A stretch of DNA of 64,000 nucleotides from an uncultured Desulfuromonadales bacterium (GCA_903929485.1 CAIYUY010000152.1:15756-79755); one strand, 5' to 3'; numbered from the stretch's first letter, positions 20,409 through 49,320 are shown. Numbers and translations are program-made. The notes: generated from the sequence alone by a model not told the origin.

Positions 20409-20543
20409 AGAAATTCGGACGGTTATTGAAGATAGTTGCATACAAAGTTGAAAACATATGCTAGAATGCGCTGTTCTTTAAAGTATGACCCCCTGGGTTT
20501 TTAGAGCGTTGGGGGTTTTTTAATGGAAGTGAGGTGAGTTAGA

Positions 20544-20744
20544 GTGATTATTGCCGTTCATAACAATGACATCGAGAGGGCGCTGCGCGACCTCAAGCGG
20601 ATGGTACAGCGTGAAGGGCTCATGCGTGAGCTGAAACGCCGCACTGCCTATGAAAAACCGTCCATCAAGAAAAAACGGAAAAGCCTGGAAGCTGAGCGCC
20701 GTCGTCGTAAGGCCCTGCGTCGGAAGAGACCGGAGAGAGATTAG
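20544..20744 (+). CDS. rpsU: 30S ribosomal protein S21
   Basis: 66 aa with a GTG start. DIERALRDLKRMVQREGLMRELKRRTAYEKPS and a basic tail are typical of S21. GAGGTGAG lies upstream. Confidence 0.85.
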   Translation: MIIAVHNNDIERALRDLKRMVQREGLMRELKRRTAYEKPSIKKKRKSLEAERRRRKALRRKRPERD

Positions 20745-20862
20745 GTTCTAGGTTCTAGGTTCTAGGTTCAAGGTTCAAGGTTCAAGGTTCAAGGTTATCC
20801 TTTCACCTTTCACCTTTCACCTTTCACCTTTCACCTTTCACCTTTCACCTTTCACCTTTCAC
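20742..20862 (+). repeat. Back-to-back heptanucleotide tandem arrays: 4x TAGGTTC, 3x AAGGTTC and AAGGTTA, then 9x CTTTCAC
   Basis: Counted base by base. The first unit contains the rpsU stop codon. The arrays lie between the stop and the terminator at 20909. Confidence 0.95.
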
Positions 20863-20908
20863 GCAGTTAACAATTGCTGTTCCCGGAAAAAGACGACACA
20901 ATGTGTAG

Positions 20909-20936
20909 GCCCCGGAAAAGTTCCGGGGCTTTTTTT
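20909..20936 (+). terminator. Rho-independent terminator downstream of rpsU and the repeat arrays
   Basis: 9-bp stem GCCCCGGAA/TTCCGGGGC with loop AAG, followed by a T7 run. Confidence 0.8.
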
Positions 20937-20966
20937 CATTCGGAGCACCGAAAAAGAAGGAAACGT

Positions 20967-22280
20967 ATGCATTTCAAAAAGTTTAACCTCCATCCCCATG
21001 TTACGGCCGGTGTCACTGCCGCCGGTTACGTCACTCCTACCCCCATTCAGGACCAGGCAATTCCTCCGGTCATGGCGGGGCGTGATGTCATGGGGTTGGC
21101 TCAGACGGGAACCGGCAAGACCGCCGCCTTTGCCTTGCCGATCCTCCATCGGTTGGAGCAGGGAGAGCGTGGTGTTGTCCGTGCCCTCATCATCGCCCCA
21201 ACCCGTGAACTGGCGGAACAGATTAACGAGGCCATCACCGATCTGGGAAGACAGACCCGCCTGAAGAGCATGACTGTCTATGGCGGCGTCAATATTAATC
21301 CGCAGATGGACAAGCTGAGACGGGGAGTGGAGATTGTCGTTGCCTGTCCCGGTCGGCTTCTCGACCATATCTCCCAAGGGACCATCGATCTGTCTCGTCT
21401 GGAGATTCTGGTGCTGGACGAGGCCGATCAGATGTTCGACATGGGATTTTTACCCGACATCAAGCGGATCCTGGCCAAACTTCCCCGGCAGCGACAGACC
21501 CTTCTCTTTTCCGCCACCATGCCCACGGCAATCCGGGGGTTGGCCAGGGAGATCCTCAGCGACCCGGTTACGGTTCAGGTGGGACATACCGCGCCTCCCG
21601 TGACGGTAAGCCACGCCCTCTATCCGGTGGAGCAGCATATCAAGACCCCGCTGCTCCTGGAACTTCTGCATCATACCGACACCGACTCAGTGTTGATCTT
21701 TACCAGGACAAAGCATCGCGCCAAACGGTTGGGGGAGCAGTTGGAAAAGGCCGGCTACAAGGCTGCATCCCTGCAGGGAAACCTTTCCCAGAACCGACGG
21801 CAGGCAGCCCTGGACGGATTCCGTGACGGCACGTTTCAGATCCTGGTGGCCACGGACATTGCCGCTCGGGGGATCGACGTCTCCCTCATATCTCATGTGG
21901 TCAACTACGATATTCCCGATACTCCCGAGGCCTATATTCATCGTATCGGTCGTACCGGACGGGCTGCCAAGAGTGGTGACGCCTTCACCTTGGTGACTTC
22001 CGAGGATACGATGATGGTGAAGGCCATAGAGAGAACCCTCAATGCTCCCCTGGAGCGGCGGACCGTGCCGGGTTTCGACTACGCTGTTCCGGCTCCTCGC
22101 AAGGATGTGGAATTTGCTCGCCCTCCCCGGGAACCACAGGTTCGCAAACCTGCCGGTGACAAGAAGGGGGCCGCTCCCAAGACAAACAGTTCCGTCAGGC
22201 CTCGCAGCGCCGGTTCCGGCGCCCATACCGCCGCCGCTCCCTCCCGGAACGCCACCGGTCAAACCCGTCGCCCGCGATAA
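20967..22280 (+). CDS. rhlE: DEAD-box ATP-dependent RNA helicase (RhlE-like)
   Basis: I chose the start MHFKKFNL, which has GAAGGA upstream and lies after the terminator. Motifs present: AQTGTGKT, PTRELA, DEAD, SAT, HRIGRTGR, plus a basic C-terminal tail. Confidence 0.85.
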   Translation: MHFKKFNLHPHVTAGVTAAGYVTPTPIQDQAIPPVMAGRDVMGLAQTGTGKTAAFALPILHRLEQGERGVVRALIIAPTRELAEQINEAITDLGRQTRLKSMTVYGGVNINPQMDKLRRGVEIVVACPGRLLDHISQGTIDLSRLEILVLDEADQMFDMGFLPDIKRILAKLPRQRQTLLFSATMPTAIRGLAREILSDPVTVQVGHTAPPVTVSHALYPVEQHIKTPLLLELLHHTDTDSVLIFTRTKHRAKRLGEQLEKAGYKAASLQGNLSQNRRQAALDGFRDGTFQILVATDIAARGIDVSLISHVVNYDIPDTPEAYIHRIGRTGRAAKSGDAFTLVTSEDTMMVKAIERTLNAPLERRTVPGFDYAVPAPRKDVEFARPPREPQVRKPAGDKKGAAPKTNSSVRPRSAGSGAHTAAAPSRNATGQTRRPR

Positions 22281-22547: not shown

Positions 22548-22583
22548 AAAACCTCAACCTCAACCTTTACCTCAACCTGTCTC
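22548..22583 (-). repeat. Hexanucleotide AGGTTG-type tandem repeats directly after the fumarase stop codon
   Basis: The minus strand reads AGGTTG AGGTAA AGGTTG AGGTTG AGGTTT. They sit between the stop (22584) and the terminator, the same stop/repeat/terminator layout as rpsU. Confidence 0.8.
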
Positions 22584-24243: not shown

Positions 24244-24270
24244 GTGAATGGTGAATGGTGAAGGGCGAAC
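24244..24270. repeat. Short heptamer array GTGAATG GTGAATG GTGAAGG (reverse complement of the CCTTCAC family)
   Basis: Read directly. It lies 35-60 nt upstream of the fumA start, in the divergent intergenic region. Confidence 0.8.
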
Positions 24271-24382: not shown

Positions 24383-24418
24383 TCAACCTGAAACCTTGAA
24401 CCTTGAACCTGTGATCCT
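24383..24418. repeat. Heptamer array TCAACCT GAAACCT TGAACCT TGAACCT (reverse complement of the AGGTTCA family)
   Basis: Read directly. The unit matches the array after rpsU but in inverted orientation. Confidence 0.8.
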
Positions 24419-24545
24419 TGCCTCCTTCCTTTTAGTTCTTGATACGCAGTTGCCGCCGATATATAGTGCTGTCTTCAATTCGGGACCGGACCGCGATCCG
24501 GCGTCTCCCGGTTCGTTCAAGGAGAGCATTTCAAGGAGATTTGCA

Positions 24546-48292: not shown

Positions 48293-49186
48293 TTGAGAAC
48301 GTTACCGCTCGGATTTTCCATCGTTATTCCCACCTTTCGTCGCAGGGATCTGTTGCGGGGATGCCTGGCGTCATGTCTCGAACAGGAGTATCCGCCCCAC
48401 GAAATCATCGTCGTTGATGACGCCTCTCCCGATGATACCGCCGCCATGGTTCGGAGTGAATTTCCCGGGGTGCTCCTGCTCCGGTTGGAGCATAACAGCG
48501 GTCCGGCCACGGCTCGGAATCGGGGGGTTGCCGCGGCAAGTGGTGATGTCATCGTGTTTACCGATGATGATTGTCTCCTCCCTCCGGAGTTTCTTGCCCG
48601 TCTTGCCGACGGCTACCGAACGCACCCCGAGATTGCCGGGGCCGGCGGCTATCTGGATCCCCCAGCGGAACTCCTGGGGGATAACCCCTATGCCCGGTAC
48701 GATTATCATATGACCCACACCTTTTACGGATTTGGACCGGAGCCGGTGGTGGGCGGGGCGGAGTGTCCCGCCGGGGGAACCCACTCCATGTCATACCGTG
48801 CCCGGGTGCTGACGGAGGTAGGTGGTTTTGACGAGTCGTTCGTATCTCCCGGCGGCGAGGATGCGGACCTGAAAAACAGGGTCGTGGAGCGGGGACACAA
48901 CCTCCTTTATCTGCCGGTCAGGGTAGTGCACCGCCGCCGCTACGGATTCAGCGACTTTTGTCGCCAGTATTTCGCTCATGGCCGTGGTTCCTCCCTGTAC
49001 AGGCGCAAGCATCTCGGCGCCGGGAAGGGGGTGAGACGGCACGGTTTTCCTCTCCGTGTGGGTTTGCGCGTTATGGACCTTATTCCTGATCTGTTCCGTA
49101 TCGGACCATCTCTCACGCTGTTGAAGATTGTCGCCGGAGCAGCCGGCTTTGCCGGGAAGCTGTACGAAAGCTATCGCAAGCGGTAG
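48293..49186 (+). CDS. Family 2 glycosyltransferase
   Basis: FSIVIPTFRR...IIVVDDASPDDT...FTDDDC. TTG start with GGGGAGAGG upstream. Confidence 0.75.
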   Translation: MRTLPLGFSIVIPTFRRRDLLRGCLASCLEQEYPPHEIIVVDDASPDDTAAMVRSEFPGVLLLRLEHNSGPATARNRGVAAASGDVIVFTDDDCLLPPEFLARLADGYRTHPEIAGAGGYLDPPAELLGDNPYARYDYHMTHTFYGFGPEPVVGGAECPAGGTHSMSYRARVLTEVGGFDESFVSPGGEDADLKNRVVERGHNLLYLPVRVVHRRRYGFSDFCRQYFAHGRGSSLYRRKHLGAGKGVRRHGFPLRVGLRVMDLIPDLFRIGPSLTLLKIVAGAAGFAGKLYESYRKR

Positions 49187-49196
49187 ACCGCGCTCT

Positions 49197-49320
49197 CCTT
49201 CACCCTTCGACTTCGCTCAGGGCGCCCTCTTTCACCCTTCACCCTTCACCCTTCACCTTTCACCCTTCACCCTTCACCCTTCACCCTTCACCCTTCACCT
49301 TTCACCCTTCACCCTTCGCA
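49197..49320. repeat. Heptanucleotide tandem array: 12 consecutive C(C/T)TTCAC units plus degenerate flanking copies
   Basis: Counted base by base from 49229 to 49312. The array ends in CCTTCGCAGTTAA, the same ...TTCACGCAGTTAA junction seen at 20856..20870. It fills the gap between convergent genes. Confidence 0.95.

Follow-up and report, generated by a model that had tools for sequence, protein, structure and literature searches.

Heptamer arrays in the rpsU 3' untranslated region of an uncultured Desulfuromonadales bacterium: probably one copy of a dispersed class of convergent intergenic repeats

Introduction

The rpsU gene of an uncultured bacterium of the order Desulfuromonadales is followed, from its stop codon onwards, by two adjacent arrays of seven-nucleotide units. 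These arrays are probably one copy of a dispersed class of convergent heptamer arrays, a copy that was recently expanded by slippage and is passively transcribed in the 3' untranslated region (3' UTR) of the gene. The class, in which GTGAA and GGTTC cores predominate in this genome, is a known and fast-changing kind of bacterial intergenic repeat and not a control device specific to rpsU. The original prediction, made from the sequence of the window (that is, the whole stretch of 64,000 nucleotides that was analysed, from the first letter of which all positions are counted), implied just such an rpsU-specific 3'-UTR device. This part of it is not supported: the element is one of about 300 in the genome, and pairs with the same mixture of arms occur in either orientation, so that the element is not peculiar to rpsU.

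For rpsU itself, therefore, the arrays matter little: they are a passenger of its 3' UTR, and annotators should not call them a ribosomal-protein regulator. The genome is a rich case for the repeat class, with its roughly 300 elements and at least eight unit families, and places three constraints on any future mechanism, namely a G-first polarity that persists even when families are mixed, the conservation of the unit core without covariation between the arms, and the replacement of one unit family by another between species. Reports of heptamer repeats go back to 1990 for cyanobacteria, with Xanthomonas, Geobacter and Beggiatoaceae added later, and no function has become accepted.

The rpsU element and its setting

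The gene (20544-20744, plus strand) is an open reading frame with a GTG start, encoding a ribosomal protein S21 of 66 aa (PF01165, 1.2e-19); the genome encodes two such paralogs, and the other, on contig C96, is 44% identical to it. Its TAG stop codon (20742-20744) forms the opening three bases of the first heptamer unit. The G-rich 5' arm, with a GGTTC core, extends over 20742-20797 and comprises four units of TAGGTTC, three of AAGGTTC and one of AAGGTTA, as read from the sequence and by TRF. A junction of 2 nt, TC (20798-20799), leads into the C-rich 3' arm with a TTCAC core (20800-20862), which consists of nine perfect CTTTCAC units and is scored by TRF as 9.1 copies with 100% matches; arms and junction are all on the plus strand. 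The original prediction of eight (T/A)AGGTT(C/A) units from the rpsU stop codon followed by nine CTTTCAC units was correct in both coordinates and counts.

The arrays are separated by a conserved, non-repeat block of 44 nt (20863-20906) from an intrinsic terminator (20907-20937) with an 11-bp stem, seven GC pairs and a T-run. Both block and terminator, again on the plus strand, are kept in a congener (G002) and in a metagenome relative (L091), and the terminator is likely to be the real 3' end of the rpsU transcript. Since the element lies between the stop codon and this conserved terminator, its position suggests that it would be transcribed within the rpsU 3' UTR. The next gene on the same strand (20967-22280) encodes a DEAD-box RNA helicase (Pfam DEAD 1.2e-51, Helicase_C 7e-32), and the radical-SAM gene upstream of rpsU does not adjoin it in relatives. 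Phase variation by a contingency SSR was considered and rejected, the arrays being placed after the stop codon and before the terminator and neither in the coding sequence nor in promoter or RBS spacing.

A dispersed class of heptamer arrays

The assembly to which the window belongs (G000; 5.36 Mb, 369 contigs, 55.8% GC) is of the Geobacteraceae; for a gene neighbouring the element the closest named relative is in an 'uncultured Geobacter sp.' MAG, and Geomonas stands at about 64% amino-acid identity. A genome-wide scan, which had been proposed together with the original prediction, found the same cores forming arrays at hundreds of sites. Perfect period-7 arrays of at least three units number 138, whereas the other periods between 4 and 15 each have 0-47 and a shuffled genome yields a single period-7 array, and backward-read control patterns gave 0-1 matches as compared with 384 and 142. 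In total, TRF returned 398 non-redundant period-7 arrays, which after merging yield 304 elements. Only about 12% of the arrays lie inside called genes, the class being dispersed, multicopy and mainly intergenic.

At least eight unit families are present. The first of the two dominant core families is GTGAA/TTCAC, with units such as CACCATT, CACCCTT, CACTCTT and CACCTTT, and is found at 120 sites on the TTCAC strand and at 129 on the GTGAA strand; the second is GGTTC/GAACC, with units such as CTAGGTT and CAAGGTT and the related CTACGTT, and is found at 63 sites on the GGTTC strand and at 42 on the GAACC strand. Among the smaller families are GGGGACC, CCCCAGT, AATTGAC, AATGTTG and GTTTTAG. Arrays of 9-23 perfect units occur in the class. 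Further members lie in the window itself, all on the plus strand: a G-rich arm of GTGAATG, GTGAATG and GTGAAGG (24244-24270) is followed, 120 nt to its right and hence with the same polarity, by a C-rich arm of AACCTTG units (24392-24420), the reverse complement of the AAGGTTC unit, and a (TTCACCC)x12.4 array (49231-49317) ends in GCAGTTAA, as does the array at rpsU.

Proximity to a stop codon, as in the rpsU element, is common in the class. By our own, crude gene calls, 49% of the elements begin no more than 10 nt from a stop codon, most often at 3-6 nt, whereas uniform placement would give 24%; this excess is a point against the preferred reading. The number of arrays per spacer differs little with gene arrangement (tandem 0.079, convergent 0.060, divergent 0.054), which leaves a terminator function of the class unsupported. 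The possibility of chi-like or replication-oriented arrays was rejected, as the orientation of unpaired arrays is associated neither with local GC skew (p = 0.46) nor with gene-strand bias (p = 0.71).

Two kinds of sequence were seen beside the arrays. A dispersed motif, CCTTCGACTTCGCTCAGGGCGCC, lies immediately to the left of several TTCAC arrays (C152:64940-64985, which is about 49185-49230 of the window, C219:2949, C277:18923, C62:1535 and C196:1157), and REP-like palindromes of the GTAGGGGCG...CGCCCCTAC type adjoin many arrays.

Architecture and polarity of the paired arrays

Within G000 there are 94 pairs of arrays no more than 60 nt apart, and 72% of these, against 20% of random pairings, are reverse-complementary at no fewer than five of the seven positions. 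The canonical GTGAA element, with about 36 copies, reads T-AAAA-CY, (GTGAAnn)x4, the loop GATCAAAGnCTTT, (nnTTCAC)x4 and RG-TTTT-A, its loop being found in either orientation; the canonical GTTC element, with 28 copies, reads AAAACA, (GTTCTAn)x4, GTTTAAAC, (GAACnTA)x4 and TGTTTT. A-tract and T-tract flanks are thus present in canonical family members, and about four units per arm are typical. The order of the arms is invariant in both, GTGAA preceding TTCAC in 36 cases to none and GTTC preceding GAAC in 28 to none. The same is true of pairs that mix families, in which GGTTC precedes TTCAC in ten instances and GTGAA precedes GAACC, the same arrangement on the other strand, in five; the reverse order never occurs. 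The rpsU element is one of these 15 mixed GGTTC>TTCAC pairs. Relative to the flanking genes, five mixed pairs are sense and six antisense, with no preference for the transcribed strand.

In this class, then, a C-rich array comes after a G-rich tandem array of 7-nt units on one and the same strand, and the rpsU copy is a mixed pair in which a GGTTC-core 5' arm is joined to a TTCAC-core 3' arm. When adjacent arrays in G000 are classified by G versus C content, a G-rich array precedes a C-rich one in 63 cases and follows it in two, and this G-first rule is obeyed whatever the arrangement of the flanking genes, with counts of 22:0 and 22:1 for tandem, 6:0 for convergent and 5:0 for divergent spacers. 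The congener G003, over 0.93 Mb, has 21:0, which brings the two genomes together to 84:2. Different families are combined in about a third of the adjacent pairs of G000, and the lengths of the two arms are often very unequal, for example 23 against 4.6 units or 14 against 3.4.

Two general accounts of this polarity were rejected. It is not a generic property of hairpins or terminators, since of 168 terminator-like hairpins 82 are G-first and 70 C-first, nor is it due to selection relative to start or stop codons, since it is equal in tandem, convergent and divergent spacers. Swapping the order of the arms leaves the folding energy unchanged. For mirrored units of canonical GTGAA/TTCAC elements, agreement between the variable dinucleotides is 25.6%, as compared with 20.5% when the unit order is shuffled and 29.8% when the arms of other elements are used, and between neighbouring units of an array variable positions differ about twice as often as core positions. 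Since mirrored variable bases match no more than expected by chance, it is the 5-nt core that is kept and not the exact complementarity of the arms.

A point against the preferred reading is that simple slippage accounts neither for the strict order of the arms, G-rich first, nor for the canonical four units in each of them, the conserved loops GATCAAAGnCTTT and GTTTAAAC and the A-/T-tract flanks; something more specific than simple slippage is shaping the class. One reading, to which we would give little credence, is that each heptamer array is an oriented module in its own right and that the pairs were not selected as the two halves of a hairpin; it draws on the 84:2 polarity, on the free mixing of families and on the mirrored units without covariation. 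Modules of this kind would be compatible with a process that adds G-rich repeats directionally at two 3' ends pointing towards each other, or else with heptad-reading proteins whose sites must be convergent; either, if true, would give a mechanism for a never-explained repeat class of many bacterial phyla.

Were each arm laid down autonomously, by 5'-to-3' addition of G-rich repeats to opposing 3' ends such as those of a break or gap, and the two arms then joined, both the polarity and the mixed-family arms would follow automatically. The polarity in G000 and G003 and in every gene context, set against the 82 to 70 of ordinary hairpins, agrees with such a process, as do the mixing of families, the unequal arms, the mirrored units without covariation and the indifference of folding energy to arm order. 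The argument is, however, purely geometric; no enzyme was found in this analysis and to our knowledge none is known for such directional laying, and copying of whole elements is favoured by the conserved loops and by the canonical form with 4+4 units. We regard this process as highly improbable.

Conservation of the core without covariation of the arms does keep a heptad-reading protein in play. The arrays would then be tandem sites for a DNA- or RNA-binding protein, for instance a nucleoid-associated protein or 'global regulator', and the rpsU copy would be one site among hundreds, which we consider unlikely. Such a protein would suit a conserved 5-nt core with about two variable positions, mirrored units that do not covary, an array orientation independent of transcription and the recurrence of the same cores across the phylum. 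Proteins of this kind are known, in that the omega repressor coats 7-bp heptads, and the ATCAAnnnnTT of the GTGAA-family loop resembles the core of the IHF consensus. The typical number of about four units per arm, which recurs in Xanthomonas (PMC4692102), points in the same direction, and IHF/HU or unknown regulators were proposed by Aklujkar et al. for the repeats of G. metallireducens (PMC2700814). Yet no candidate was found; a homologue of Omega_Repress was absent by Pfam search, although this is a weak negative as the control genomes were silent too. Moreover, several proteins would be required to read the unit families, of which there are at least eight and which are unrelated, the exchange of unit family at orthologous sites (see below) is odd for a specific regulon, and arrays of 9-23 perfect units look like products of slippage and not like tuned sites.

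Predicted fold of the rpsU element

The in-register pairing of the two arrays that the original prediction had put forward is matched by the predicted fold. RNA of positions 20742-20865 is predicted to fold at -38.6 kcal/mol, against -13.95 +/- 2.19 for dinucleotide shuffles (z -11.3), into a hairpin in which in-register AAGGU/ACCUU helices of 4-5 bp alternate with 2x2 or 3x3 internal loops; five of the seven positions pair, the arms of this mixed-family pair not being full reverse complements. Because shuffling is a lenient null for a repeat, chimeras of other arrays of the same two families were used as a second null. By this comparison the rpsU pair, at -0.32 kcal/mol/nt, ranks among the best 4.5% of GGTTC x TTCAC chimeras assembled at random and has a better fold than most mixed pairs, and mixed pairs taken together slightly exceed such chimeras in stability (p = 0.017). 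Against the preferred reading, some selection on pairing is thus possible. The opposite strand has a better predicted fold (-50 kcal/mol), and the element as single-stranded DNA is predicted to fold at -17.3. The array hairpin is followed by GCAGTTAAC, without a direct U-run, the real terminator being situated 45 nt downstream, and against Rfam 15 the best matches of the element scored 15-24 bits with cut-offs of 49-80. If the element is a passively transcribed copy of the dispersed class, as we favour, a long imperfect hairpin would still be predicted in the 3' UTR, and any effect on rpsU, such as a slowing of 3' exonucleases of the kind produced by REP elements, would be incidental to the class, with no gene-specific device involved.

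The original prediction had further pointed to a resemblance of AAGG to a Shine-Dalgarno (SD) core and of CACCUUU to the anti-SD end of 16S rRNA. A cis-regulatory RNA in the rpsU 3' UTR could in principle use the two as SD and anti-SD mimics and so, by their mutual pairing or by binding of ribosomes, tune S21, a protein itself involved in SD/anti-SD use; the element would be placed inside the transcript, upstream of the terminator, and its predicted hairpin is strong. The resemblance is, however, weak. AAGGUUC pairs with the anti-SD tail at only -5.4 kcal/mol, as compared with -16.1 for a canonical SD and -14.4 for the ribosome-binding site of rpsU itself (energies for a generic anti-SD tail, the 16S gene not being in the assembly), and no start codon follows the AAGG motifs or is contained in the arrays. 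On account of these duplex energies, mimicry of SD and anti-SD by the arrays was rejected. Furthermore, the same arm combination occurs at 15 loci by unrelated genes and in either orientation, and the division of mixed pairs into five sense and six antisense argues against any function that needs AAGG first and CACCUUU second in a transcript. The arrays are also absent from L091 and from another genus with the same gene pair, and degenerate in G002. Regulation of this kind, already disfavoured by such sequence comparisons, appears to us extremely improbable.

Turnover at the rpsU site and between genomes

The preferred reading, that of a copy of a fast-changing class, is in keeping with the state of the site in relatives. 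The congener G002, in which S21 shows 97% aa identity and the flanks are the same at about 90-95% identity, has a 5' arm of about six degenerate units (TAGAATC, TAGGTGC, AAGGTTC, AAAGTTT, AAGGTTC, GAGGTTC) and a 3' arm of about five (CCTTTTA, TCTTTTA, CCTTGGT, CCTTTAA, CCTTGAA), which resemble the reverse complement of the 5' arm more closely than they resemble the CCTTTCA of G000. Its predicted fold is -32.7 kcal/mol (z -5.4); that hairpin potential is present in both genomes despite the change in sequence is a point against the preferred reading. On the metagenome contig Ga0194037_1002517 (L091) the downstream block and terminator are kept and 57 nt of unique sequence replace the arrays, and in a member of another genus (G018, S21 71% identical) the order rpsU-terminator-helicase is kept without arrays. 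The proneness to slippage that had been ascribed to the arrays agrees with these differences, since both copy number and unit sequence differ in G002 and the arrays are absent from the two other relatives. Absence or high variability of the arrays in close relatives, as seen here, was also what the original prediction had itself named, there together with a lack of effect on rpsU expression, as speaking against its proposal.

These comparisons suggest a history in which a self-complementary palindrome of the GGTTC/GAACC type arose at the rpsU site within the genus, the partial complementarity of AAGGT and ACCTT being most simply a remnant of that older palindrome. The element would then have decayed in G002, and in G000 slippage would have spread and homogenised single unit variants to give, recently, the perfect 8+9 units.

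A similar instability is apparent genome-wide. G003 has about 81% nucleotide identity to G000, and of 175 orthologous spacers eight carry arrays in both genomes, nine in G000 only, ten in G003 only and 148 in neither, a co-occurrence with an odds ratio of 13 (p = 3e-5); the detector was strict, several of the 'absent' cases being degenerate arrays. Sites common to both genomes often carry a different unit family. Thus (GTTCTAG)4|(GAACGTA)4 corresponds to (GGGGACC)4|(CCGGTCC)3, AATGTTG|CAACATT to AATTGAC|GTCAATT, and one mixed GGTTC>TTCAC pair of G000 to AAAGGCT|AGCCTTT in G003. Such family-swapped sites were seen at C26:29530, C107:40875, C302:14684 and C213:23976 of G000, with the G003 orthologs L040, L042, L085 and L045.

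The cores are widely and unevenly distributed. The pattern (TTCACnn)3 is found in 84 of the 151 genomes of the order and in 82 of the 301 of the phylum, with backward-read controls near zero, and (GGTTCnn)3 in 49 of the 151. Among the 151 genomes of the order TTCAC arrays are densest in G000, where 384 windows match. Within the genus the counts for each core family diverge by as much as about 20-fold, G001 having counts of 17 for TTCAC and 376 for GGTTC and G003 counts of 171 and 93.

Differences in presence between close genomes would also be expected of a non-autonomous MITE- or REP-like mobile element inserted behind rpsU, with the arrays as its subterminal repeats. The fixed architecture of the canonical copies, with their conserved loops and palindromic AAAAC...GTTTT ends, is consistent with this, and a true MITE in G003 bears inverted (GGCTGAA)n arrays in its arms. 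However, comparison of the rpsU copy with L091 and G002 showed neither a target-site duplication nor a terminal inverted repeat, other filled-versus-empty sites showed none either, and arms of mixed family are unexpected from one element family. In addition, G000 has seven Y1_Tnp (RAYT-like) genes and none of them is flanked by heptamer arrays, on which ground a RAYT/REP link was rejected. Insertion of a mobile element at rpsU is accordingly, in our estimate, quite unlikely.

The MITE of G003 is about 150 bp long, with a 12-bp terminal inverted repeat (GTAACTACTCAG), an 8-bp target duplication (CAGTTGTC) and arms of inverted (GGCTGAA)n / (TTCAGCC)n heptamer arrays; it was seen at L075, the ortholog of C173:41431 in G000, and also at L034 and L062, and is absent from the G000 sites. 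An ORF of 300-346 aa with an N-terminal Y1_Tnp (IS200/RAYT-like) domain is present in G000 in five copies near the ends of contigs C30, C202, C228, C3 and C54, and probably represents a mobile element whose multiple copies interrupt the assembly.

Relation to known repeat systems

Searchable literature held no description of GTGAA/GGTTC arrays, matches to the unit sequences being unrelated primers; the class itself has close counterparts. In Xanthomonas campestris and X. axonopodis, GGGAATC heptamers, mostly of four units, are intergenic and number hundreds per genome, and 70-75 pairs are in convergent orientation, a G-rich array on the plus strand preceding one on the minus strand, without strand or replichore preference (Rehm et al. 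2015, PMC4692102). Common to these and to the pairs of G000 are the intergenic 7-nt tandems, four units as the most frequent number and the G-first polarity. What differs are the cores, GTGAA and GGTTC in G000, and the coexistence there of several families that form mixed pairs such as that at rpsU. Since the GTGAA and GGTTC cores lack G-tracts, the G-quadruplex idea does not apply here.

Within the same order, G. metallireducens has inverted pairs of 3-5 tandem hepta- or octanucleotides as well as GGGACCG x4 elements, for which binding of IHF/HU or a global regulator was proposed only (Aklujkar et al. 2009, PMC2700814). These inverted pairs are likewise intergenic, occur there in tens of copies and have a variable inter-arm distance. 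GGGGACC-type arrays occur in G000 and G003 too, whereas the other consensus units of G. metallireducens (GTTGCTYN, TCTCCGTS, MTYCTGA) differ from those of G000.

Heptamer repeats were reviewed by MacGregor (2015, PMC4679880), including the TAACTGA repeats of Beggiatoaceae, cyanobacteria and Bacteroidetes, and work cited there has heptanucleotides as the commonest long SSR unit in bacteria. With the cyanobacterial STRR and TAACTGA repeats the arrays of G000 share an intergenic position, tandem heptamers, a small number of families and a patchy phylogenetic distribution. TAACTGA repeats, however, are mostly direct and in fixed orientation just upstream of start codons, whereas the elements of G000 are mostly convergent and orientation-free. 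One unit that forms arrays in G000, CCCCAGT/ACTGGGG, is presumably the cyanobacterial STRR1 unit.

The REP/BIME sequences of enterobacteria are transcribed extragenic palindromes just past stop codons, able to form 3' hairpins, and in some of them (RIP/RIB) two inverted arms surround an IHF site. Their arms are single imperfect palindromes of 20-40 nt with a GTAG head and are linked to RAYT transposases. The position after the stop codon is alike, but the arms in G000 are tandem heptamers and no RAYT linkage was seen.

Other features of the rpsU locus

Outside the repeat element, a conserved terminator-like hairpin with a U-run (20489-20524, plus strand; ACCCCCUGGG...UUGGGGGU) is present in the rpsU leader, about 20 nt upstream of the start codon. 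No Rfam match was found for it. Its CCCCC/GGGGG stem and U-run are kept in five genomes of several genera, and of the 12 pairs of the stem two have changed in both partners. The hairpin may be an attenuator or else a leader that responds to S21.

The 44-nt block between the arrays and the terminator (20863-20906; GCAGTTAACAATTGCTGTTCCCGGAAAAAGACGACACAATGTGT) is better conserved than the rpsU coding sequence among G000, G002 and one metagenome contig. It contains UUCCCGG, which could pair with the 5' arm of the terminator, and the block may be a candidate antiterminator that controls read-through into the DEAD-box helicase gene.

Downstream of the helicase gene, a hexamer array, (AACCTC)x4.8 (22550-22578), follows another terminator-like hairpin and has the appearance of a relative, with period 6, of the GAACCT units.
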